Of a stretch of DNA of 64,000 nt, positions 1,171 through 12,707 are shown piece after piece; within the stretch, counting starts at the first letter, position 1, and each line of letters opens with the position of its first letter. Below the pieces are notes generated by a model. The model was not told the origin of the DNA. It did not search any database and saw only the letters and a program-made list of their open reading frames with translations. Made by a program: the position numbers and the translations under genes. Origin of the DNA: Eggerthellaceae bacterium UBA3686 (GTDB taxonomy: Bacteria > Actinomycetota > Coriobacteriia > Coriobacteriales > Eggerthellaceae); NCBI GenBank assembly GCA_002371495.1, contig DFIX01000019.1, positions 30,207 through 94,206 on the forward strand. Direction: 5' to 3'.

Positions 1171-2838
1171 TTACATCCTGCTCGCAAACTTGTTTATGCC
1201 CTCTTCGTCGATGACCACCTTCATCGCCCACGGTGGCACCGATGGCGTATGCGCCTCGCCCGTGTCCATGAACACGAACGCCGTATCGTAATCGGGCGCG
1301 GCCTCTGGGTACTGCCCCAGACCGTCGGTGAAGTAGATAAGCCCCTTCATGTCGGTCAGCTCGCCGCGCTTGCGCAGGCTGTCCACGTAGCCGAACACCG
1401 GGCGAAAGTCGGTCCCGCCCATACCCCGCACGAAGAAGCCGTCCATGAATGCGTCGACATCGGCCAAATCGGTTATCTTCGTATCCGCCTGCACCTTCGC
1501 ATCACATTGAATCACGTGTATGTTGACCGAATGCGCGAAGTCCTCCTGCTTCTTGATTATGCCGAAGGTATGCTCGACAAAGCGCTTCACAAGCTCGCCC
1601 TTGCACGATTCAGACGTATCGATGGCGATGACGAAATCGCGGATGCGCTGCGTCTCTTTGTACTCGAGCGGCTCGACGAGCGGCATGTCGCCGTATAGTT
1701 CGAGACCGTAGGTGTAAAAGACGTAGTCGTACTCGTCGTCGTTGATCTTCATCTCTTCCGAGAGCATGGTGAAGCGTCTGAGAAAATCGGCGTAATCGTA
1801 GCGCTTGCGGTTCGCCACTTTCAGGCTGGCTATGAGCGAGCCCGCCTCGTCCCCCCATTCGGCCGAGAACGTCTCGAGGTTCATCTCGACCTGCTTGGCG
1901 ATTTCTTCCCAATCGCGCTCTTCTTCTGACTTCTGATCGTTGACTTCGCGCTCGTTGTCCTGGGTGTTCGACGAACCGTGCCAGTCACCCGAAACGTTGT
2001 CTTCGGCATCGTCGCCCTCGGCGGTATCTTGCGCATCGGCCGACGAACCCTCGGCGTCTTGGCTCTCGTCGCTCGACTCCTCGCCCTCGTTGTTCTGCAT
2101 CTCCTCGACGTCCTGCTCGGCGGCTTCCGCATCGCCGTCGGCCAGCATTTCGCGCATCTGGTCCTCGGGAGCATCGCCCTCGGCGTCGTCGTCCTGCTGC
2201 GCGAGCTCCTCGACCTCGCCTGGAACCTCTTCGGCCTGACCTTTCGAATACGACGGCCACGCCTCGTGGTTGTCGCGCTCGAAAAGCGCCATGTACTCGG
2301 TGAACTTGTCTTGCGTAAGCCCCAGGTACGTAGTGCCCTGCGGCGCCGTGAGCGCTTTCAGGAACAGCTGGTACAGAGACCCGGGTGCGATTTTGCCACA
2401 CATGAGGCTCAGCTCCGAGAGCGCTCCCCGACGGCTCTTGTCGAGCTCGCTCTCGAAGCGGCCGGCGCACAGCTCCATCGCCACGCTCTCGGCTACGACA
2501 TCACAGGCAAGCCACCAGGCGTCGTGTCGGGGATGATTTTCGTCGAAGGGATGCCTGAAGATGCAGTGCATCACCAAATGCAGGTAGTCTCGCACCTGCT
2601 CGTCGAACGATTCCTCGAAGCGCCCGACTACGGCATAGGGTTCGAAGTACACCTTCTTGCCGTCGGTCGCCATCGGGTAGCGCCCCTGCACATGTACCGC
2701 TTCGGATGGCATGCGCCAAAGCGCCAGGTCAAGGAAACGAAACTTCAACATGAGCGAAACGCGCGATTCCTCGATGATCTCGAGTGCGACCTTTTCGGCC
2801 TGAAGCCAGCGCTGTTGCTTTTCGTCTAGTTGGACCAT
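1171..2838 (-). CDS. VWA-domain protein of the DUF2201 type: N-terminal metallopeptidase-like domain, acidic linker, C-terminal VWA domain
   Basis: 555-aa ORF. MIDAS motif DTSES (FVIAIDTSESC), followed by GGTDF and YFTDG. The N-domain motif LHLVMHCIFRH sits where this family usually has HExxH. A D/E-rich linker of about 125 aa spans roughly 1881-2256. ATG at 2838 lies 9 nt after the LRR gene stop. Confidence 0.8.
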   Translation of the reverse strand: MVQLDEKQQRWLQAEKVALEIIEESRVSLMLKFRFLDLALWRMPSEAVHVQGRYPMATDGKKVYFEPYAVVGRFEESFDEQVRDYLHLVMHCIFRHPFDENHPRHDAWWLACDVVAESVAMELCAGRFESELDKSRRGALSELSLMCGKIAPGSLYQLFLKALTAPQGTTYLGLTQDKFTEYMALFERDNHEAWPSYSKGQAEEVPGEVEELAQQDDDAEGDAPEDQMREMLADGDAEAAEQDVEEMQNNEGEESSDESQDAEGSSADAQDTAEGDDAEDNVSGDWHGSSNTQDNEREVNDQKSEEERDWEEIAKQVEMNLETFSAEWGDEAGSLIASLKVANRKRYDYADFLRRFTMLSEEMKINDDEYDYVFYTYGLELYGDMPLVEPLEYKETQRIRDFVIAIDTSESCKGELVKRFVEHTFGIIKKQEDFAHSVNIHVIQCDAKVQADTKITDLADVDAFMDGFFVRGMGGTDFRPVFGYVDSLRKRGELTDMKGLIYFTDGLGQYPEAAPDYDTAFVFMDTGEAHTPSVPPWAMKVVIDEEGINKFASRM

Positions 2839-2847
2839 GTCTTAATC

Positions 2848-5130
2848 CTACAAATCGAAGTCGAATGCAGCACGGCCGAAGCGGGTGCGTTTCAGCTCGA
2901 GCAGATAGCCGCTCATGGCGGCATCCTGCAACCCGCTTACTGCAACGATAACCGTCTCGATATTATCAGCGTTCAGGTACCCGAAATCGGCAAGGGCTCC
3001 CATAAGGGCGCGATCGTCATGACGCGCCGTGTCAACGCAGATCTCGACTGCATGTTCGCGCAAGGTCCGCTCGAAAAGCGACCGGTTGACGCCTGTCAGC
3101 AAAATGGGGTCTTTGAAGCGCTCGACAATTAACCGAGCCTGCTCGTAGGCCGTCACGCCATCGCCTTTGCGAGCAGTGTAATCATGGGCGTTTGCCAGGC
3201 AGTTGTCGAAGTGCTTCATCATATCGGGCACGTTCACCCAACTCGACCCGCCGAGCGCCAAGCTGATCTCATGAATCGACCGGGCCGTGTCGGGAAACCT
3301 GAACTCGAAGACGGTCCTCCCCTCGAGCGGTTTTTTCAATTCGACCTTGATATGCTCGATGAAAGACCATGTAAGGAGCCCCGACGAACCGATGGTCTTG
3401 AGATTGGGCCCTAGATAAATTGACTTGATGTTACGGCAGTTGCTGAAAGCATACGATTCGATGTGCTTCACGCGCTCGGGTATGGCGACGTCTTCTACCG
3501 AATTGTCGAACAGAATCGCTCGATCGCCGTCCTCGCCCCGCTCGCACAGGATACCCGATTCAACGTAAAAGCGCGTATTAGCCGGGTCAGCAGAGATCTT
3601 CGCAATCGAGGGCGGCTCGACCAGGCGATGTGCACCTGCGGTGACAAATGCGTCGGCTCCTATGCTCTGCAGGGCAGCCGGAATGAAGAGCTCGGTCAGC
3701 GACGAGTCAATAAATGCCTCTTTGCCAATAGCCCTCAACGTCGACGGAAAGGTGACCGAGCGCAGCTTTCTGCAGACCCTGAAAGCGCTGTCGCCAATCT
3801 GCTCGACGCCTTCCGGAACCTCGACTTCCTCTATCGTTTCGTGAAATGCGAAAGCATACGATTCAACGACATGCGTCCCATCAACAATCTTGAACGCAGC
3901 GACAGTCGGATCAATCAGCTGCACGAATCGCAAGTATTCACCGTCTTGTTTGTAGAGTCCACCGTTTCCATCGTAGAAATACAGCGGGTTCTGGCTCGAT
4001 ACCGCAAACGTTGCACCTTCGCCCGTGTATACAACGTTGGTGTTCTGAACGATGCAGTTCCCTATAAAGCGCACCGAAGCAGGCACCACAATTCCTTCGA
4101 GCCCCGAACCGGCAAATGCATAGGCGGCGATACTCTCTAGGCCCGCGTTCAACGTAACGTGAGAAAGCTCCTTGCAATGAAAAAACGAGCGCTCACCAAT
4201 GGTCTTAAGCGAACATCCGCATTCGAGCCTCTTCAAGCCGGTATGCGCGAACGCGTAGTCTTCGAGCACCTCCAAAGAGTCAGGCATTACCACCTGTTCG
4301 AGTTTCAGGACGCCCATACACGCTTTCTTCGCGACCCGCTTGCATCCATTTTGAATTATCAATTTCTTGACCGGACGGGCAAGCGCTATGAGGGTCTTTC
4401 CGTCTTTTGCGTAAAGCGCATCGCCATCGCAATCGATAAATGGATTGTCAGCAGCTACCTCAATGACCTTGAGCTGTGTCTTTTCAAATGCGCCCGGGAG
4501 CACGTTCTTTACGTTTTTGCCGATGATTAGCGTCTGCAAAGAGGGATTCTCGAATACTTCGCCGGTAATCTTCTCGAGCATGCCGGGCAATACGATGGTC
4601 TTGATCTTTGGACACTGCGACAGCCACGTGGCCGAGAATTCGACGACGTCTTTCGGAAAACGGACGTACTCGAGATTCTCATTCATCCTAAAGGCGCACA
4701 GCCCGATTGTTTTAACGCTGTCAGGACATATTATTCGCCGCACCGACCCAAGCTCCGCACATGCATCAGCGCTAATAGCATACACAGGCAGGCCTTCGAT
4801 GCTGCTAGGAATCTCGAGCGTCTCTTCAGCTGTCCTGCAACGCGTGATTCTGACCATGCTTTGGTCGACGATTCTGTAAGTCCATACCGTCTTATCGCCA
4901 CAAGAATAGGTATACGGCTTTGACGAGCGCGCATATTCGAGGTCTCGCAGCCGCTTTGCTTCAGCTTGCTTGCGCTTATACTCGATTTCCATGCGTTCAA
5001 GCTGCTCTTTCGAAGCAGTCACTCCGTCCATTGCGGTCGGCGAAAAACCACCGAACGTAACAGCCAATGTTGCTATCGCAGAAACGCCATCGCCTATAGC
5101 CAAAATACCCTCGCTATAATCGTTAAGCAA
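2848..5130 (-). CDS. BspA-type leucine-rich-repeat protein with no recognisable signal peptide and a helical C-terminal domain
   Basis: 760-aa ORF with repeated ~23-aa LRR_5-like units (e.g. VEVPEGVEQIGDSAFRVCRKLRSVTFPSTLRAIGKEAF). An N-terminal coiled-coil-like stretch reads KEQLERMEIEYKRKQAEAKRL. The track start is TTG and the true start is uncertain. Sample lines are only 47-50% GC. Confidence 0.75.
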   Translation of the reverse strand: MLNDYSEGILAIGDGVSAIATLAVTFGGFSPTAMDGVTASKEQLERMEIEYKRKQAEAKRLRDLEYARSSKPYTYSCGDKTVWTYRIVDQSMVRITRCRTAEETLEIPSSIEGLPVYAISADACAELGSVRRIICPDSVKTIGLCAFRMNENLEYVRFPKDVVEFSATWLSQCPKIKTIVLPGMLEKITGEVFENPSLQTLIIGKNVKNVLPGAFEKTQLKVIEVAADNPFIDCDGDALYAKDGKTLIALARPVKKLIIQNGCKRVAKKACMGVLKLEQVVMPDSLEVLEDYAFAHTGLKRLECGCSLKTIGERSFFHCKELSHVTLNAGLESIAAYAFAGSGLEGIVVPASVRFIGNCIVQNTNVVYTGEGATFAVSSQNPLYFYDGNGGLYKQDGEYLRFVQLIDPTVAAFKIVDGTHVVESYAFAFHETIEEVEVPEGVEQIGDSAFRVCRKLRSVTFPSTLRAIGKEAFIDSSLTELFIPAALQSIGADAFVTAGAHRLVEPPSIAKISADPANTRFYVESGILCERGEDGDRAILFDNSVEDVAIPERVKHIESYAFSNCRNIKSIYLGPNLKTIGSSGLLTWSFIEHIKVELKKPLEGRTVFEFRFPDTARSIHEISLALGGSSWVNVPDMMKHFDNCLANAHDYTARKGDGVTAYEQARLIVERFKDPILLTGVNRSLFERTLREHAVEICVDTARHDDRALMGALADFGYLNADNIETVIVAVSGLQDAAMSGYLLELKRTRFGRAAFDFDL

Positions 5131-5226
5131 ATATGAAATGCATTTACCAGAAAGATTTTGACCCGAGATTCCACTCGGGTCATTATGCAGTTCGTATGTA
5201 CAAGATTAAACCGTGAGAAACACTCG

Positions 5227-5550
5227 TTACTTGCGCAATCTACCAGCTGAGTCAAATTTACGTCGCGGTTCGATTTCATCACCGTAGATGATGCAGTAGC
5301 GCGTGCCCTTTAGAGTAACAATAAGGCTCGCCACGACCGGGGCACCCTCGTTACCGTGGTCGTAAACCTGGTACGTCAGCAGCTCTCGATCGAACATCTC
5401 TTGATACACTGGGTTATTCTCAATCTTGCTCAGCAGCACGTTTGTGGGTTCGCGACCGAGCTCGTCCTGCCGAAGGGCAATGTTATACAGAATGTTTTCC
5501 TGCTCTTCCGAAAGACGTCCTTCAGCCCTGATTTCCTCTTCTGTAGCCAT
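5227..5550 (-). CDS. hypothetical 107-aa protein
   Basis: ATG preceded by GGAAGGTG about 12 nt upstream. No motif recognised. It lies 96 nt upstream of the LRR gene on the same strand, in the same lower-GC stretch. Confidence 0.5.
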   Translation of the reverse strand: MATEEEIRAEGRLSEEQENILYNIALRQDELGREPTNVLLSKIENNPVYQEMFDRELLTYQVYDHGNEGAPVVASLIVTLKGTRYCIIYGDEIEPRRKFDSAGRLRK

Positions 5551-5636: not shown

Positions 5637-5664
5637 AAAAAAGGGGGCGGCCTAAGCCGCCCCC
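5637..5664 (-). terminator. Rho-independent terminator closing the Mo-enzyme operon
   Basis: Minus strand reads GGGGGCGGC-TTAG-GCCGCCCCC followed by TTTTTT, 28 nt after the stop of the 93-aa gene. Confidence 0.75.
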
Positions 5665-5691: not shown

Positions 5692-5973
5692 CTACCAAGG
5701 AACCTCGCGGCCCTTGAACTCATGCGGATCCCCGCGCCAGCCGTCGCCTTCCTGAGCATACTCGTTGCCAGAACGCTTCGTGCTGGTGTAACCAGACCAT
5801 GCGCGGGCCATGAACTTGTCCTTGACCCAGAAGATGTTCTGCTTCATCAGCTCAGCAGCGTCGAGCTCATACTCAGCCAGAGCCTCATCCTTGGACTTTC
5901 CAGCAGCAACAGCCTCATTCAGAAGCTTAGCAATCTCGCTGTTGTCAAGCGCCAAAAGCTCTTCACGATCCAT
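5692..5973 (-). CDS. hypothetical 93-aa protein; third gene of the Mo-enzyme operon
   Basis: ORF MDREELLALDNSEIAKLLNEAVAAG...GDGWRGDPHEFKGREVPW. It lies 65 nt downstream of the 119-aa gene and is followed by a strong terminator. No cysteines and no recognised family. Confidence 0.55.
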   Translation of the reverse strand: MDREELLALDNSEIAKLLNEAVAAGKSKDEALAEYELDAAELMKQNIFWVKDKFMARAWSGYTSTKRSGNEYAQEGDGWRGDPHEFKGREVPW

Positions 5974-6038
5974 AGGTGTCCCTCCTTCTTTAGGTGAAGC
6001 CGCCTTTTGACGGCTTCACCAAAGTCTATCACAAACTT

Positions 6039-6398
6039 TTAGAGACGGAACAGAACGGTCGGGCGATCAAATTCCTGCATCTTTGCGAACATCTCGTCAA
6101 GAGTGCCATAGTACATAGATGCGGACTCTTCAACCTGGACAGCAACCGGACGCTGACCAGCCTTGTCGCCGCCAGCTCCCCAGTGCTCAGAGAAGATGGA
6201 CGTCGGGCAAGGAATGTAGAACCATTCCCAAGCGTCGCCCGTGTCACCCTCGCCCTTGCGGAAGGGGCCGACCTGGACTTCCTTGATACCAAACTGCTCG
6301 AGCGGGAGACCCAGTTCTTCCTTGCAGGCAATCTCTGCTGCGTGATTGCCGGAGAAGTAAGTGTAGTCAACGAGCAGGCCGTATTGAGTGTCTGCCAT
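6039..6398 (-). CDS. degenerate, cysteine-depleted ferredoxin-like small subunit of the molybdopterin enzyme
   Basis: 119 aa with only 2 Cys. The N-terminus QYGLLVDYTYFSGNHAAEIACKEE aligns by eye with the canonical beta-subunit start QYGxVIDxxxCIGCxxCxxACKxEN. The C-terminal PVAVQVEESASMYYGTLDE aligns with PACVxxCPxxAxxFGDxxD. It starts 19 nt after the large-subunit stop. Confidence 0.6.
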   Translation of the reverse strand: MADTQYGLLVDYTYFSGNHAAEIACKEELGLPLEQFGIKEVQVGPFRKGEGDTGDAWEWFYIPCPTSIFSEHWGAGGDKAGQRPVAVQVEESASMYYGTLDEMFAKMQEFDRPTVLFRL

Positions 6399-6417
6399 TA
6401 AGATCTTCCCCTTTCGA

Positions 6418-8757
6418 TTAGTCCTCGTCGAGGCTGCGGACGCGCTTCATGTTGCACATGACACCCTTGTAGGGAGCGCCGAAGCCAAGCTTGCCGATGT
6501 TCTGGTGCGGGACCAGCGAGTTGAAGTTGGACTTCCACACGCCGAACAGGTTGGGCTCTTCGCCGTCCTGCTCGGGGTACCACCAACCATGAGCGCAGTT
6601 GATGATGCCGGGCTTCAGAACAGGAGTAATCTCTGCCTTGAAGCGAGCCTCGCCGAACATGTTGTAAACCTCGACCCAGTCGCCCTCGGTGATGCCATAT
6701 TCCTTGGCGGTCTCGGGCGGAATCTGGACCCATGCCCACGGGTCGATCTGACGCAGGGACGGAACCTGACGATGCTCGGAGTGGAAGGAGCTGTAACGAC
6801 GAGAACCGGAGGTGGAGATCAGCGGATAAGCCTCGGCGTCCTGCGGACGGCTGACCTGCGAGTAGTTCGGCTCCTCGTAGTAAGGCAGCGGATCCTCGCC
6901 CCAAGAGGCGTAGAGGATGGAGTTAGCCTCGATCTGGCCGGTGATGGTGTTGAAGCCAGGCTCGCCGTCGAAGCGGAGCAGGCCCTTCTCGTACTTCTTG
7001 TACTCGAAGCCATGAGCACCAGGCTGATACAGACCCTCTTCACGGAGGTCGTTGAAGTCCATGTTCAGCTCAGCAAGCTGATCGCTGAAGAACTTGTCGA
7101 CGGCCTTGTCGAGCTCGGTACGGTCGATGGCAGCGCCATCCTTGTCGCCCGGCATCCACTCGGGATCGAGCCACGGCCACCAAGACGGATTCAGCTTGGA
7201 ACCGAACATCAGGCAGATCTCGATGTCGGACATGCACTCGCCGACCTGCAGGGCCTTGTTCATCGGGCCCATGAACACGGTGTTGCGGCCATAGTGGGTG
7301 AGGACGATGCCGTCATGCTCAGCCCAAGTGGCCATCGGGAGGAAGTAATCGCCAACAGCCATGGCCGTCGGGGTCATCCAGAGGTCCTGGATTACGCAGA
7401 ACTCGATGGACTCGAGCAGCGCCTTGTGCCAACGCTTCGGCTGAGCCGAGCAGGTCGGCGCCAGGAAGTTGGAGCTGTTGAACCAGGCCATACGCAGCTG
7501 ATACGGCTGCTTGGTCTCCATGGTGTTCAGCGTCTCGTCGGGCTGGGTGGTAGCCATGCCGGTGGACAGGCCAGGCCACTGGGCAGCGCCGATACGCTTC
7601 TGCCAAACCTCGTCGTCCATAGCGCCACGCTGCTCCATGCGCCACTTGCCGAGCAGAGCAGACGGAGGACCGAGGGTCAGGCCACCAGGCGAGTCGATCG
7701 AGCCAGCCAGAGCGGCCAGGAGGATCATTGCCTGGGACAGCTGAACGCCGTTCTTGTTCTGGTCAAATGCGAGGCCCCAAGCCCAGCCGATCGGGCGCTC
7801 GGTGCCGATGATATGAGCGACCTTCTCGATGGTCTCGACGGAAACCGTCGTGATCTCGGAGACCTTCTCGACCGGATACTCAGCGGCGCGCTCTTTGAGC
7901 TCGTCGATGCCGAAGATCCAGTTCTCGGCCATCTCATGATCGTACTCGTCGTTCTGGAACATGAGGTTCATAACGCCGAGGGCGAAAGCGGTGTCGGTCT
8001 GCGGACGGACCTGAACATTGATGTTGCCATCATGAGCGCCAACCCAGGTAACACGCGGGTCAACGGAGATGATGTGGGTGCCACGCTTCATCATGTCGAC
8101 GAGGCAGTGACCGAAGAAACCGTCGCCGTTGGAAGGCAGCGGCTCCTTGCCCCAAACAACAACCCACTTGGAAAGCGTGTAACGCGGGTCGTCATAGGAG
8201 CCAGGCAGGTGGCCTGCATAGTCGAGCTCGGGGTAGCCAGCGCCGAGGACATAGTCGGCGATGGAGCAACGAGGACCGTAGCAAGACCAACCAGACTGCG
8301 TGTAGCAGCAGTTCGGCGACTTCAGAACGGAGAACGTCAGAGCATAGTAGTAAATGCATGCCTCACGGCCGGTGCCGCCGAAGCAAACGATGGACTCGGG
8401 GCCGCCATTAGCGGGATCCCAGTAGTAACGAACCTTCTCGACGATGGTCTCGAGGCACTCGTCCCAAGAGGTGCGCTCCCACTTGTCTTTACCACGATCC
8501 TCAACCGCACGCTTCATCGGGTAGATGATGCGGTCAGGATGATGGGTGTACTCACGCAGAGCGAGGTTCAAGGCGTTAACACGGCCCGTGGTGATCGGGT
8601 TGTTATCGTCACCCTCGATACGGATCAGCTTGCCATCCTTGGTGACCACCTTGACGCCGTATCCTACGGGGTGAGATCCCGGAGGAGACCAAGTGTTGGA
8701 ACGGGTGACGATAGTACCGTCGGGCATTTCGGTACGCCACTCCTTGGAATAAGCCAT
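6418..8757 (-). CDS. molybdopterin (bis-MGD) oxidoreductase-family catalytic subunit, acetylene-hydratase / pyrogallol-transhydroxylase / catechol-dehydroxylase-like, cytoplasmic
   Basis: 779 aa from ATG 8757, with AAGGAG 8 nt upstream; the track ORF extends to 8793. Typical family blocks are present: KDGKLIRIEGD, HPDRIIYPMKR, VDPRVTW, and a C-terminal molybdopterin-binding block GDWVEVYN...KPGIINCAHGWW. There is no RR leader and no Cys in the FS0 region. Confidence 0.9.
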   Translation of the reverse strand: MAYSKEWRTEMPDGTIVTRSNTWSPPGSHPVGYGVKVVTKDGKLIRIEGDDNNPITTGRVNALNLALREYTHHPDRIIYPMKRAVEDRGKDKWERTSWDECLETIVEKVRYYWDPANGGPESIVCFGGTGREACIYYYALTFSVLKSPNCCYTQSGWSCYGPRCSIADYVLGAGYPELDYAGHLPGSYDDPRYTLSKWVVVWGKEPLPSNGDGFFGHCLVDMMKRGTHIISVDPRVTWVGAHDGNINVQVRPQTDTAFALGVMNLMFQNDEYDHEMAENWIFGIDELKERAAEYPVEKVSEITTVSVETIEKVAHIIGTERPIGWAWGLAFDQNKNGVQLSQAMILLAALAGSIDSPGGLTLGPPSALLGKWRMEQRGAMDDEVWQKRIGAAQWPGLSTGMATTQPDETLNTMETKQPYQLRMAWFNSSNFLAPTCSAQPKRWHKALLESIEFCVIQDLWMTPTAMAVGDYFLPMATWAEHDGIVLTHYGRNTVFMGPMNKALQVGECMSDIEICLMFGSKLNPSWWPWLDPEWMPGDKDGAAIDRTELDKAVDKFFSDQLAELNMDFNDLREEGLYQPGAHGFEYKKYEKGLLRFDGEPGFNTITGQIEANSILYASWGEDPLPYYEEPNYSQVSRPQDAEAYPLISTSGSRRYSSFHSEHRQVPSLRQIDPWAWVQIPPETAKEYGITEGDWVEVYNMFGEARFKAEITPVLKPGIINCAHGWWYPEQDGEEPNLFGVWKSNFNSLVPHQNIGKLGFGAPYKGVMCNMKRVRSLDED

Positions 8758-9150
8758 ACTGTTACTCCTTTTCTCGTTTACCCTCGGAAACAAAGAGACT
8801 TATACGCCGCGACCTTACGGTTGCATCGCTCTGATCGAACCCGATTAGAATCGGCTCTAGGGGTAAGCCAGCACCTTTCGGATACGTCAGACAGCTAATC
8901 GATTTACCTTACCCTCCCGTTTGCTCGCACCAATCGGCAAGTGGCTGGAATGGTGTTTGCATATTTGGCCAGGTAAATGACGAGCAGCCGAAATTCCTCT
9001 TCGCTTCCCTTTTAATACTGCTGGTACCACTCGCAATCTCATTGGTTTCATCTGGGGCAATGAGCGTAGTAATACCAACGTGCCTATTCTAGCAGCATTG
9101 TGAATCTTGGCAAGCAACGTATTTGCTGATGCCTTAATCTATTTTCAGAA

Positions 9151-9213: not shown

Positions 9214-9239
9214 CGGGCCACCTCTGTTGAGGCGGCCCG
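9214..9239 (-). terminator. hairpin downstream of the FKBP gene
   Basis: Minus strand reads CGGGCCGCCTC-AACA-GAGGTGGCCCG followed by TTCTATAT, a weak U tract. Confidence 0.5.
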
Positions 9240-9263: not shown

Positions 9264-9749
9264 TTATAAGCCGTATTGCGCGGCGAATTCGCTGCCGTCG
9301 TGCTTCACGGGCGGCTTCCAATCACCCTCGGGCTCTTCAACCGAAAGGATTTCGACCTCGAAGGTGAGGTTCTTGCCCGCCAGAGGGTGGTTCATGTCGA
9401 ATGTGACTTCCTTCTCGGTGATGTTTTTAATGGTGACGGGGAACTTCTCGCCGTCGTCACCCGTCATCCAGATGCGCATGCCGATTTCGATGTTCTTCAG
9501 CGGCACCTGCTCGACCGGAACGGCCTCGAGCAACCCGTCGAGGTATTCGCCGTAGCCGTCGTATTCGTTGAGGGTGAACGTCTTCTTCTCGCCGGCCTCC
9601 ATGGTCATGATCTCGCGCTCGAAACCGGGGATGGTCAGATCCATGCCGGTCTGGAACTCCATGGGCTGTTCGGTCTTTGCATAACCGAATACGGTGCCAT
9701 CGTCGAGGGTGCCCGTGTACAGCAGTCGGACAGTCGAGCCAAGTTTCAT
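9264..9749 (-). CDS. FKBP-type peptidyl-prolyl cis-trans isomerase, SlyD-like (FKBP domain with IF-flap insert)
   Basis: 161 aa. Starts VRLLYTGTLDDGTVF and ends ...FDMNHPLAGKNLTFEVEILSVEE, the typical SlyD-type architecture. No His-rich tail. Confidence 0.85.
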   Translation of the reverse strand: MKLGSTVRLLYTGTLDDGTVFGYAKTEQPMEFQTGMDLTIPGFEREIMTMEAGEKKTFTLNEYDGYGEYLDGLLEAVPVEQVPLKNIEIGMRIWMTGDDGEKFPVTIKNITEKEVTFDMNHPLAGKNLTFEVEILSVEEPEGDWKPPVKHDGSEFAAQYGL

Positions 9750-10078: not shown

Positions 10079-10333
10079 TTACGCGCCGGGGGCCTTGGGG
10101 GCGCCGGGGGCCTTGGGGGCGCCAGGAGCGCCGGGGGCCTTGGGGGCGCCAGGAGCGCCAGCTGCAGGAGCCGCGCCGGGCAGAGGCTTCTCGCCGTTCA
10201 GGTACGGGGTGAAGTCTTCCTTGCAGAACGGGCACTTGTCAAGCGTAATGCCCGCCATCATCTGGATGGGCTTCCCGCATCCAGGGCACTTCATCGGGCC
10301 GCCGCCGCCAGCATCAGATGGTCTAAAGCACAT
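10079..10333 (-). CDS. small zinc-ribbon protein with a C-terminal (A/G)PGAPK repeat tail
   Basis: 84 aa. ATG at 10333 has AAGGAGG 7 nt upstream. CPGCG...CPFC forms a four-Cys ribbon. The tail reads GAAPAAGAPGAPKAPGAPGAPKAPGAPKAPGA. Confidence 0.6.
   Translation of the reverse strand: MCFRPSDAGGGGPMKCPGCGKPIQMMAGITLDKCPFCKEDFTPYLNGEKPLPGAAPAAGAPGAPKAPGAPGAPKAPGAPKAPGA
10083..10160. repeat. imperfect 18/27-nt tandem repeat encoding the PGAPK tail
   Basis: GCGCCGGGGGCCTTGGGG occurs at 10083-10100 and 10101-10118. A 27-nt variant with a GCGCCAGGA insertion follows. Confidence 0.8.
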
Positions 10334-10619: not shown

Positions 10620-10985
10620 GTACGAGCAGCGGCTCTCTGTGTTATTATGCTCTGATGTAGGTTTCGTGAGCGAATGCCTACAAATGAGCGCTTGGCTTAG
10701 GGGTGAAGATTCATCAGGCCTTGCGCATCGTAGAAAGAGAATCGTAGAAAGGAGGATCCCTGCAGTCGTTTCTTCCGTCCCATCGCTTCCACGCGGCGGG
10801 TCCGCTGTTTAGGGGACAGCTTGAATACGGAGGCGTCCGTAAGTCATGAATGCGAATGCGTCCGTGATTTCCCGCCCGCAAGCGCGCAGACGGTATTGCC
10901 ACTGCAGTGAGAGCTGAGGCTCACGGCTTCAAATCAATTGGGGATAGAAGCCGCTTACTTGAATAATCCTTTAAAGGAGGGATTG

Positions 10986-12707
10986 ATGGATAACAAAGAG
11001 TTTACCGTCTCTGAGGTTATCGACTCATTCGGTATCAACGGTCATACCTGGCTGATGTTCATCCTGCTGGGCCTGGCAAACATCTTCGACGGTTATGACT
11101 TCATGGTCATTAACGTCACGAACAGCTACGTCGCAGCCACGTTCTGGCCCGACGCTTTCGCGCTGAACGACGCTGGCAAGATGGCTCTTCAGCCGCAGTA
11201 CTCGGCCCTCATGGGCTCGCTGACCACCTGGGGCCTGCTGGGCATGGTGCTCGGCGGTGCTACCGGCGGCATCCTCTCTGACCGCATTGGTCGTAAGAAG
11301 ATGCTGACCATCGCCGTTCTGTTCTACGGCGTGTTCACCCTGCCGCAGGCGTTCGCTAACGACGTGTACTTCTTCGCAGCGTTCCGTCTGATCGCCGGCT
11401 TCGGCGTCGGCTCCTGCATCCCGGTTGTTACGACCTGCTTCTCTGAGACCATCCCGTCTCAGCACCGTGGCGTGTTCGTGACCTTCGGCATGGCCTTCAT
11501 GGTCGCCGGCTGGGTGCTCGCAGGCCTGATCGGCAACCCGATTGCTTCGAACACCGCTTCGATCATCCCTGGCTTCACCGATGGTGCCATCAAGACCGCA
11601 GCTTCCCTGCGTCCTGACGGAACCGAGGTCATCTTCTGCCAGAACTGGCGCCTTTGCTACCTGATCGGCGCTCTGCCCATCGTGTACGGCATTGCCCTGT
11701 TCTTCCTGATGCATGAAACTCCGCACTGGTACGCCAACAGTGGCCAGAAGGAGAAGGCTTGCCAGGCTCTTATGGACATCGCCCATAAGCATCATGACGA
11801 CAAGGCTCATTACGACGCCAACCTGCTCGTCGTTCCTCCGAAACCTGCAAACGTCGGCCCGAACGTACTGTTCTCCAAGAAGTACATCGTCGCTACCGCT
11901 GCTATTTGGTGCACCTACTTCGTGGGCCAGTTCTGCGTGTACGGCATGAACGCTTGGATTCCGACCTGGTTCCAGGGCGTTGGCTACTCTGCAGCTGACT
12001 CCACGAACCTGCAGACTTGGAACAACTTCGCAGCTATCCTTTCGAACGTGTCCGTAGGCTTCGTCTCTGACCGCATCGGCCGTAAGAAGAACCTCGCCGC
12101 GTCCTGGATTGCCTGCATCGTCGCCATCGTTCTGTGCTCGATGTTCGTCCAGCCCAACAACATGGTGCTGTGCGTCATCCTGATGCTGCTGTTCGGCTTC
12201 TGCCTGAACTACGCCATCACGGCTGTCCAGCCGCTGATGCCCGAGAGCTATCCGACCGCCCTGCGTAACACCGGCGTCGCTTGGTGCCAGGCGTTCGCTC
12301 GCTTCGGTGGTTCCGGCTCCTCCATCGTCCTCGGCGCAATCGCTGGTTCTGCTATGTTCCAGACCGACGGTGCCACCAACTGGTCGATGGTCGTGCTCGT
12401 CCTCATCGTTCCGTTCATCCTCGGCTTCATCTGCACGATCCTGTTCGTGCGCGAGACCGGCGGCAAGACGATGGACCAGCTGGCTGCAGAAGCAACGACC
12501 GAAGACAAGTCCGATACTGGTCAGACTCAGTTCATCATCATGATGATCGTGGCTGCCATCCTCTTCGTCCTCTGCATCGTTTGCCCGCTCGTGGTTAACG
12601 GTTGGTCGAAGAGCCCGATGGCTCTGCCGCTGATGACCATCGGCATGCTGCTCCCGTTCGTCTACTTCTTCATCTTCGCAACTCCGCAGATCAAGAACTC
12701 CAAGTAG
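10986..12707 (+). CDS. MFS transporter, aromatic-acid/H+ symporter-like, with an extra C-terminal membrane module
   Basis: ATG 10986 is preceded by AAAGGAGGG. Duplicated motif A: SDRIGRKKMLT and SDRIGRKKNLA. After the usual end (RETGGKTMDQL) come about 70 further residues with two hydrophobic segments. Confidence 0.9.
   Translation: MDNKEFTVSEVIDSFGINGHTWLMFILLGLANIFDGYDFMVINVTNSYVAATFWPDAFALNDAGKMALQPQYSALMGSLTTWGLLGMVLGGATGGILSDRIGRKKMLTIAVLFYGVFTLPQAFANDVYFFAAFRLIAGFGVGSCIPVVTTCFSETIPSQHRGVFVTFGMAFMVAGWVLAGLIGNPIASNTASIIPGFTDGAIKTAASLRPDGTEVIFCQNWRLCYLIGALPIVYGIALFFLMHETPHWYANSGQKEKACQALMDIAHKHHDDKAHYDANLLVVPPKPANVGPNVLFSKKYIVATAAIWCTYFVGQFCVYGMNAWIPTWFQGVGYSAADSTNLQTWNNFAAILSNVSVGFVSDRIGRKKNLAASWIACIVAIVLCSMFVQPNNMVLCVILMLLFGFCLNYAITAVQPLMPESYPTALRNTGVAWCQAFARFGGSGSSIVLGAIAGSAMFQTDGATNWSMVVLVLIVPFILGFICTILFVRETGGKTMDQLAAEATTEDKSDTGQTQFIIMMIVAAILFVLCIVCPLVVNGWSKSPMALPLMTIGMLLPFVYFFIFATPQIKNSK

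Follow-up and report, generated by a model that had tools for sequence, protein, structure and literature searches.

The sequence analyzed here, called the window throughout, is a 64,000-nucleotide stretch of contig DFIX01000019.1 from Eggerthellaceae bacterium UBA3686, and our subject is a pair of adjacent genes on its minus strand. The larger gene encodes a molybdenum (Mo) enzyme of the dimethyl sulfoxide (DMSO) reductase family that carries bis-molybdopterin guanine dinucleotide (bis-MGD) and whose FS0 iron-sulfur (Fe-S) site has no cysteine left, while the smaller one encodes a ferredoxin-like partner that has lost most of its cluster cysteines. Both are orthologous to the genes of the hydrocaffeic acid dehydroxylase of Gordonibacter pamelaeae (Gp Hcdh) and are called hcdhA and hcdhB, their products being referred to as alpha and beta. 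The features that carry the argument are as follows.

6418..8757, minus strand: hcdhA orthologue, encoding a Mo-bisMGD catalytic subunit of 779 amino acids (aa), with neither a twin-arginine translocation (Tat) leader nor an FS0 site
6039..6398, minus strand: hcdhB orthologue, encoding a Cys-depleted, ferredoxin-like accessory subunit of 119 aa and beginning 20 nt past the hcdhA stop
8566..8694, minus strand: degenerate FS0 segment (residues 22-64), as seen in the signature columns of the family alignment
8281..8283, minus strand: codon for the presumed Mo ligand Cys159, within the motif SGWSCYGPRC, located by HMMER alignment to acetylene hydratase

The open reading frame (ORF) of hcdhA spans 6418..8793 on the minus strand, with an ATG at 8757 that is preceded, about 7 nt upstream, by an AAGGAG ribosome-binding site, and its product starts with MAYSKEWRTEMPDG. 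The longest N-terminal extension allowed by the frame adds 12 residues (MFPRVNEKRSNS) before an in-frame stop is reached, and these contain no twin-arginine motif and no hydrophobic stretch. A wrong start or a frameshift concealing a Tat leader or an FS0 site, a possibility that the original prediction had itself raised, is ruled out by this stop 12 codons away, by the good ribosome-binding site and by the same N-terminus being shared by more than 40 orthologues. Pfam profiles detect PF00384 (Molybdopterin) and PF01568 (Molydop_binding) in the protein and do not detect PF04879 (Molybdop_Fe4S4, the FS0 domain). From the absence of any export signal the protein is predicted to be cytoplasmic, and the earlier description of a cytoplasmic bis-MGD enzyme without a Tat leader stands.

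The kinship with acetylene hydratase that had been suggested at the same time is borne out both by profile (E 1.6e-96) and by fold. The AlphaFold (AF2) model of alpha (predicted local distance difference test, pLDDT, 87; predicted template-modeling score, pTM, 0.89) has as its best match the acetylene hydratase structure 2e7z, with template-modeling (TM) scores of 0.82/0.87, far ahead of all other enzymes, and no closer solved structure was found when 2026 copies of the PDB were searched by sequence and by fold. The only segments of the model with a pLDDT below 50 are residues 25-30, 210-214, 489-492 and 658-660, which correspond to the highly conserved, mostly invariant motifs PPGSHP, NGDGF, YGRN and FHS; these loops probably contact the cofactor or the substrate and are unplaceable in a model lacking bis-MGD.

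Loss of the FS0 Site and Retention of the Catalytic Core

The family alignment comprises 87 sequences, with 41 full-length sequences in the clade of the window protein and a comparison set of 44 relatives. The segment TWSPPGSH...GRVNALN, residues 22-64 of the window protein, contains no cysteine, and none is found anywhere in residues 1-124. In the FS0 columns the window protein has N21 (just outside the segment), S28, Y33, N61 and N64, and so have all full-length members of its clade; among the 44 relatives, columns 33, 61 and 64 are occupied by Cys in 91-98%, column 28 by Cys or Asp, and column 21 mostly by Cys. The relay Arg (CxR, two residues past the fourth Cys) is replaced in the clade by Leu or Met, L63 in the window protein, and the FS0 signature of the clade, SNTWSPPGSHPVGYG ... 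GRVNA[LM]N, is Cys-free. Because the same FS0 residues recur in every full-length clade member, the absence of cysteine is a fixed character of the clade and not the result of chance or of an error in frame or start, so that what had been noticed in a single protein, i.e., no cysteine at any FS0 position, holds clade-wide.

The FS0 motif of the family is itself non-canonical, with the pattern C-x6-C-x4-C ... C-x2-C around WSPPG, and more distant paralogues read TC-AWSPPG-C-HPVG-C-G ... GRL-C-xR-C. The second FS0 Cys is replaced by Asp (PPGDHPVGCG) in 26 sequences, to which most of the nearest relatives of the Cys-free clade belong, and some paralogues, as well as Dodh, miss the first FS0 Cys and keep the extra C-x2-C.

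The presumed metal ligand has been retained. HMMER placed Cys159 opposite the cysteine in the segment MYMCIGN of acetylene hydratase, which we take to be the tungsten (W) ligand Cys141 of that enzyme, and both Cys159 and His29 are invariant in all 87 family sequences. Cys159 is part of a cysteine-dense patch at residues 150-164 (nt ~8266-8310; NCCYTQSGWSCYGPRC), in which C151, C159 and C164 are invariant in an alignment of 63 homologues at 55-96% identity, the Fe-S-bearing sisters among them. C151 and C164 are without counterpart in acetylene hydratase, and C159 alone has an assigned role, that of metal ligand. A compensating new cluster site formed by these three residues was ruled out, since they are equally conserved in the Fe-S-bearing relatives.

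A Small Subunit Depleted of Cysteine

A scan of species-representative genomes yielded 80 loci, in each of which the large-subunit homologue (36-95% identity) is directly followed by a gene for a protein of ~110-120 aa. The small subunits of relatives carry the motifs CxxCxxCxxxC plus CxxCx11CxxxC, whereas the hcdhB product of the window has 2 Cys as against 8-10, the latter number being a feature of uncharacterized aligned paralogues; 7-8 of its 8-10 cluster cysteines are gone. Clade small subunits contain one or two stray cysteines, a few members having regained up to five, at other positions. The window hcdhB product is 87% identical to its counterparts in two clade loci (L024 and L001). 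It gave no Pfam match and shows no ferredoxin motif, whereas the Sporomusa counterpart passes Fer4_11. The AlphaFold (AF2) model of beta (pLDDT 88.9) has the beta subunit of polysulfide reductase (2vpw_B) as its best PDB match, with a match probability of 0.99, and a PsrB-like predicted fold is as expected of a ferredoxin-type remnant. The suspicion that the electron-transfer subunit is dead was hence well founded.

On the alignments, the Hcdh lineage has lost its entire electron wire: no FS0 cysteine is left, the relay Arg has been replaced, and both [4Fe-4S] sites of beta are without their cysteines. The catalytic core, with the Mo ligand Cys159 and with His29, is kept.

Phylogeny and Selection

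A protein search returned more than 50 clusters at 67-96% identity, from Eggerthellaceae and Coriobacteriales, and PF04879 is absent from all of these but one (P0057). A second group at ~55-58% identity, from Peptococcaceae, Sporomusa, Dehalobacterium and Gordonibacter, has PF04879 in nearly all its members. The Cys-less clade is monophyletic in 100/100 neighbor-joining bootstraps and lies at least 8 nodes from the root, among Fe-S-bearing paralogues; because it is nested inside Fe-S-bearing lineages, the loss of the Fe-S sites is derived. Within the clade, the window protein is 80-95% identical to most members and 70% identical to the most divergent sub-branch (L039/L048), its closest relative being encoded by the Eggerthellaceae metagenome-assembled genome (MAG) SGB_4515 (95%). 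Its identity to the Fe-S-bearing paralogues of the family is 36-61%, the closest at ~58% in the sequences compared.

The ratio of non-synonymous to synonymous substitution rates (dN/dS; Nei-Gojobori, within the clade) is 0.03-0.18 for the large subunit, 0.00-0.15 for residues 1-70, i.e., the former FS0 domain, and 0.01-0.14 for the Cys-less small subunit. Alpha, the former FS0 domain and beta are all under strong purifying selection. Across all 87 family sequences 79 alignment columns are identical, and only 16 fixed differences are specific to the clade, five of them inside the FS0 domain.

Two further partial losses, apparently independent, were seen elsewhere in the family. P0068/L007 (L007:8001-10720) has C, D, H, D and T in the FS0 columns and an intact small subunit with 9 Cys, and a Trichloromonas MAG pair (L051:5977-8732) has lost the first and third FS0 Cys together with the second ferredoxin motif. 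The exceptional cluster P0057 matches the clade at ~82% identity only past residue ~200. The ~200 residues before this point are foreign, with an H-x5-C-x3-C FS0-like motif, and are explained either by a chimera created in assembly or by a domain swap that occurred in nature.

Orthology With the Hydrocaffeic Acid Dehydroxylase of Gordonibacter pamelaeae

Gp Hcdh, first designated Unk-9 (Unk-9A/B), is the hydrocaffeic acid dehydroxylase of G. pamelaeae 3C and consists of a 770-aa catalytic subunit (A0A369M2P7) plus an 'accessory subunit' (A0A369M407); genes of its type occur in Gordonibacter, Paraeggerthella, Ellagibacter and Raoultibacter (Bae et al., 2024, PMC11585353). Hydrocaffeic acid (HCA, 3,4-dihydroxyphenylpropionate) is a metabolite of coffee and vegetables. 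The window protein is 83% identical to A0A369M2P7 over residues 1-401 (the published first 399 residues). It is also 81.6% identical, over its full length, to the protein of a Paraeggerthella hominis locus inside the clade (L024), the first 399 aa of which match Gp Hcdh at 100% identity. Identity to Gp Hcdh is 73-100% throughout the clade and at most 61% in the next relatives. The isofunctional threshold used in the sequence similarity network (SSN) of Bae et al. (2024), where Gp Hcdh forms SSN cluster 9, was 72% identity, and the window protein lies above it. Likewise, the catalytic gene is followed directly downstream by the small accessory gene, as in the Gp Hcdh orthogroup. Since the identities to Gp Hcdh exceed the 72% threshold and a clear gap separates the next relatives, we assign the window genes as orthologues of hcdhA and hcdhB. 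Orthology thus indicates that the window enzyme is one already known and characterized, as Gp Hcdh. The placement of the protein within the catechol dehydroxylase expansion of Coriobacteriia was accordingly right, the clade containing Gp Hcdh itself, whereas the substrate, which the original prediction had considered unassignable, can be assigned by orthology as HCA.

The likeness extends to the Cys-less FS0 signature, the Cys-depleted beta encoded directly downstream, the absence of a Tat leader and a length of ~770-780 aa. The window differs in that its host is a different, uncultured member of the Eggerthellaceae, in that no LuxR-type regulator is adjacent, and in the genes upstream, which encode an FKBP protein, a zinc-ribbon (Zn-ribbon) protein and a transporter of the major facilitator superfamily (MFS).

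Much is known of the characterized enzyme. Gp Hcdh is induced more than 250-fold by HCA, its genes are the two most highly expressed of G. pamelaeae 3C in vivo, and in human gut metatranscriptomes no other catechol dehydroxylase cluster is transcribed as highly as its own (Bae et al., 2024, PMC11585353). The natively purified enzyme, with one Mo per protein, produces 3-(3-hydroxyphenyl)propionate (mHPPA) from HCA with methyl viologen/dithionite, with a kcat of 28.3 per min and a Km of 0.24 mM (PMC11585353). HCA acts as an electron acceptor supporting growth and ATP formation, as DMSO does, and in G. urolithinfaciens HCA-dependent ATP formation requires Hcdh, as the deletion phenotype demonstrates (PMC11585353). 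Proteomics of the activity-purified enzyme recovered the alpha peptide SNTWSPPGSHPVGYGVK (A0A369M2P7) and the beta peptides YALLVDYTYFSGNHAAEIACK, AGQRPLAVQVEESASMYYGTLEEMQAK and MAEFDRPMVLFQL (A0A369M407) (PMC11585353). These peptides bear the same Cys-less signatures as the clade of the window protein, which indicates that the Fe-S-less form is the active enzyme.

The disappearance of all Fe-S ligands from two proteins together might also be expected of a catalytically dead relic, or of a pair that serves outside catalysis, for instance by binding or sensing a ligand. With both proteins under purifying selection, the Mo-ligand Cys and the 79 family-invariant columns retained, an orthologous Cys-less pair purified as an active enzyme, and its genes topping expression in vivo, such a fate is hardly conceivable.

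Comparison With Other Enzymes of the Family

The window protein branches within the acetylene hydratase-like, Gordonibacter-type family. As defined in the literature, catechol dehydroxylases of the Gordonibacter type have no Tat leader, a smaller catalytic subunit, a small partner, and adjacent MFS and LuxR-type regulator genes. The window protein, at 779 aa and with no Tat leader, falls with these enzymes (alpha ~770 aa) rather than with those of the Eggerthella type (~1190 aa). An Fe-S electron-transfer small subunit is present neither in the window nor in Gp Hcdh. Dodh, Cldh, Gs Vadh and Eadh1-3 resemble the window pair in having two cytoplasmic subunits (alpha ~750-790 aa, beta ~110-120 aa) and no Tat leader, in frequent MFS/LuxR neighbors, in the acetylene hydratase-like fold and in the WSPPG...H motif. 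They differ in that the non-canonical FS0 cysteine set is kept, Dodh reading TSVWTGPGCHNGCG...GRLCLRC. A 2025 paper reports Gs Vadh to be a close neighbor and treats the small subunit of the Gordonibacter type as an electron-transfer protein with Fe-S clusters, while according to a 2024 review Gordonibacter catalytic subunits are in general without an Fe-S motif. The latter statement does not fit the sequence of Dodh (GCHNGCG...GRLCLRC), nor the PF04879 matches of most relatives. Current schematics with an Fe-S small subunit and the review's generalization thus both misfit the sequences: most family members, Dodh included, keep a non-canonical cysteine quartet, and the aligned paralogues have a beta subunit with two clusters. 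Only in the Hcdh lineage is everything gone, and its enzyme is nevertheless an active reductase.

Acetylene hydratase of Pelobacter acetylenicus, although the closest solved relative and, like the window protein, a cytoplasmic enzyme with a Cys metal ligand and the same overall fold, is only 25% identical. It is monomeric, with W as its metal, a retained FS0 and Asp13 next to the second FS0 Cys. The window protein, by contrast, has neither the four-Cys FS0 nor the catalytic Asp, the position of Asp13 being taken by His29; it is accompanied by a beta subunit, its chemistry would be reductive, and its Gp Hcdh orthologue contains Mo.

The two other likenesses that had been suggested, to pyrogallol-phloroglucinol transhydroxylase and to DorA, were not upheld, the window protein being close to neither by profile or fold scores. 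Pyrogallol-phloroglucinol transhydroxylase (4v4c) is likewise a bis-MGD enzyme acting on a polyphenol ring; it catalyzes a net redox-neutral hydroxyl transfer, has Ser as its Mo ligand, and pairs a large subunit without FS0 with a beta subunit that holds three [4Fe-4S] clusters. Membership among these enzymes (AthL) was rejected on a remote profile match (4v4c_A, E 4.7e-22 vs. 1.6e-96 for acetylene hydratase), a TM score of 0.71 and the cluster-less beta of the window. DorA, TorA and BisC are FS0-less reductases of the DMSO reductase family and offer a functional analogy, since they take electrons directly at Mo/pterin, the donor being a cytochrome for DorA/TorA and NADPH for the biotin sulfoxide reductase of Rhodobacter. 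However, they belong to another clade, have a Ser ligand and no beta, and FS0 absence is ancestral there, as opposed to a recent loss in Hcdh. Membership in this group (type III DMSO reductases) was rejected in view of E values of ~1e-45, TM scores of 0.66-0.68 and a Cys in the ligand position.

Proposed Reaction and Electron Supply

We consider it likely that the locus encodes an orthologue of Gp Hcdh, i.e., a cytoplasmic, two-subunit, reductive Mo catechol dehydroxylase for HCA, in which electrons enter directly at Mo/pterin. HCA would be imported, probably via the nearby MFS symporter, and would bind Mo(IV), the para-OH then leaving as an oxo/hydroxo ligand to give Mo(VI). Regeneration of Mo(IV) would require two electrons that could not be delivered through the protein. 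Because the protein has no internal electron path, these would have to reach Mo/pterin directly, from a diffusible two-electron donor or from a docking redox protein, by analogy with DorA, TorA and BisC, and the small subunit would have been retained as a structural or docking scaffold.

The original prediction had favored a different chemistry, in which the wire-less enzyme runs a redox-neutral or self-contained Mo reaction (hydroxyl transfer, hydration or disproportionation) rather than a donor-dependent reduction. The complete loss of FS0, relay Arg and beta clusters would suit such a reaction, as would the position of acetylene hydratase as closest solved structure; moreover, the published Gp Hcdh assays all contain methyl viologen/dithionite, and the available part of that text documents no strict dependence on the reductant. 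This proposal is contradicted because the characterized orthologue, with the same losses and one Mo, turns HCA into mHPPA, a reduced product, and ATP formation from HCA depends on it, HCA serving in vivo as an electron acceptor as DMSO does. His29 at the position of the acetylene hydratase Asp13 and the remoteness of pyrogallol transhydroxylase also speak against it. A non-redox reaction is therefore very improbable and can be dropped, and the gene can now be named, as part of an hcdhAB orthologue in an uncultured Eggerthellaceae lineage.

Several points nevertheless weigh against the reductive HCA dehydroxylase with direct electron entry. The conversion of HCA to mHPPA and the content of one Mo per protein are known only for the enzymes of G. 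pamelaeae and G. urolithinfaciens. The HCA activity of the window protein is assigned by orthology, and the protein stands at the divergent edge of the orthogroup, 82-84% identical to most members. The direct-donor step is argued from analogy, and the absence of iron is read from the sequence alone. It is also hard to see how the energy conservation attributed to Gp Hcdh could be achieved by a soluble, wire-less cytoplasmic enzyme. Furthermore, no match to the LuxR-type membrane regulator of L001 was obtained by tblastn at E<=1 anywhere in the 64-kb window, so that regulation, and possibly the exact substrate, could differ. This regulator is found in ~27 clade loci and accompanies Gp Hcdh too; it belongs to the genomic context and is no trait of the enzyme itself. 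The locus of the closest relative (L008, 95%) is also without it within 6 kb, and the sub-lineage without the regulator may regulate the operon differently or constitutively.

Hence the orthogroup and the reductive chemistry could be as proposed while the sub-lineage without an adjacent LuxR-type gene (the window, L008 and L040) acts on another catechol acid. An identity of only 82-84% to the characterized enzyme would allow this, catechol dehydroxylases are reported to be highly substrate-specific, and both the missing regulator, which most clade loci have, and the differing upstream context (FKBP, Zn ribbon, MFS) point the same way. However, the identity exceeds the 72% threshold that separates characterized activities, residues are very strongly conserved throughout the clade, and the core of A, B and third ORF, as well as the downstream synteny (107-aa gene, BspA LRR, DUF2201), match L001. 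We regard a change of substrate as unlikely, and HCA as the preferred assignment.

The oddity flagged in the window protein holds for the characterized enzyme too, which leaves its electron supply and its claimed cytoplasmic respiratory role unexplained. The text of Bae et al. (2024, PMC11585353) contains no mention of iron, Fe-S loss, localization or donor, and a literature search found no paper discussing the loss of the Fe-S wire in the Hcdh lineage. Tentatively, and with more doubt than confidence, we propose that Gp Hcdh and its orthologues are reductive, reportedly energy-conserving enzymes of the DMSO reductase family without any Fe-S cluster, standing beside a fossil ferredoxin subunit and using a route of electron entry undescribed in this enzyme class. 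If this is true, a small reductant of the cytoplasm might donate two electrons or a hydride directly to Mo, as in BisC, or the route might involve a partner docking on the cofactor-less beta or on the conserved third small protein described below. Loss of the wire (iron economy, oxygen tolerance, cheaper expression) could then help to explain the top transcription in the gut. The Hcdh lineage would offer a natural experiment on the electron route to Mo, with the ~58% identical Fe-S-bearing relatives as comparators.

Operon Structure and Neighboring Genes

The two genes are embedded in the following context.

5692..5973, minus strand: third ORF of the operon, 93 aa, motif FWVKDKFMARAWSGYTSTKRSGNE, with homologues near the small subunit in clade and Fe-S-bearing loci
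5643..5664, minus strand: strong intrinsic terminator ending the three-gene operon, a 9-bp all-GC stem plus TTTTTT, 28 nt past the third-ORF stop
9086..9113, minus strand: promoter-like site TTGCCA-16-TGnTAGAAT upstream of hcdhA, 10/12 consensus match
9214-9239: terminator after the upstream FKBP gene, followed by the promoter-like site
9264..9749, minus strand: FKBP/SlyD-type peptidyl-prolyl isomerase, PF00254 and NCBIfam matches, a separate transcription unit
10079..10333, minus strand: small zinc-ribbon protein beside the FKBP gene, CxxC...CxxC in the translation
10938..12707, plus strand: MFS transporter of the aromatic acid:H+ symporter family, PF07690

Long antisense ORFs overlap both genes, one of 836 aa at 6388-8898 (plus strand) over hcdhA and one of 135 aa at 5994-6401 (plus strand) over hcdhB, owing to the high G+C content. 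They distorted a first greedy (longest-ORF) gene calling, and the neighbor counts taken from it are lower bounds.

The third ORF has homologues near, and mostly just downstream of, the small subunit gene. They occur in 21 or more clade loci and in no fewer than 8 loci of Fe-S-bearing relatives, belonging to Peptococcaceae, Desulfosporosinus, Desulfitobacterium, Syntrophomonas and Coriobacteriales (L045, L049, L052, L055, L059, L067, L075 and L079). The family is Cys-free, ~75-95 aa long, and characterized by the motif F[FW]VKDKF.AR.W.GY[TQ]TTKRSGNE. Pfam and NCBIfam scans gave no match for the third ORF, and every homologue is annotated 'hypothetical'. The tryptic peptide string expected of it is absent from the published proteomics of the excised Gp Hcdh band, and the papers searched on subunit composition describe two subunits and no third gene. 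The terminator of the operon also appears as the terminator portion of a weak Rfam match.

Upstream of hcdhA, the promoter-like site is weak evidence, such sites being no more frequent in the region than in shuffles. The 470-nt upstream gap has no Rfam match below E 0.2, and thus no known riboswitch (e.g., for Moco), and nothing is conserved past ~35 nt before the hcdhA start, even in comparison with the 95%-identical relative. Among the nine neighboring ORFs scanned between 10.0 and 22.8 kb no aromatic-degradation gene was found; they are housekeeping or unannotated genes (ELP3-like radical SAM, methyltransferase, serine acetyltransferase, NAD synthase).

The best NCBIfam matches of the MFS transporter are aromatic acid/H+ symporter, PcaK and MhpT, all under the curated cut-offs. 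MFS genes lie next to members of this enzyme family in 10 clade loci and 7 others, and such neighbors have also been reported in the literature. The gene at 10938..12707 likely encodes the substrate importer, in agreement with the imported aromatic compound that had been anticipated. In 11 clade loci and 3 others an FKBP gene is close to a member of this enzyme family. One of these cases is L007, where the pair of FKBP and Zn_ribbon_8 genes (L007:3119-3827) accompanies a different paralogue. The FKBP/SlyD-like isomerase and the zinc-ribbon protein may be a maturation helper for these molybdoenzymes.

Downstream of the operon, a block on the minus strand (1171-5550) comprises a clade-specific 107-aa gene, a 760-aa BspA-type leucine-rich repeat (LRR) protein and a DUF2201 (VWA-like) protein. 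It is syntenic across the genera Adlercreutzia, Slackia, Gordonibacter and Raoultibacter, and in L001 (L001:11426-18174) the corresponding block is followed by an AAA+/methyltransferase fusion. The block is either functionally linked to the operon or merely a conserved neighborhood.

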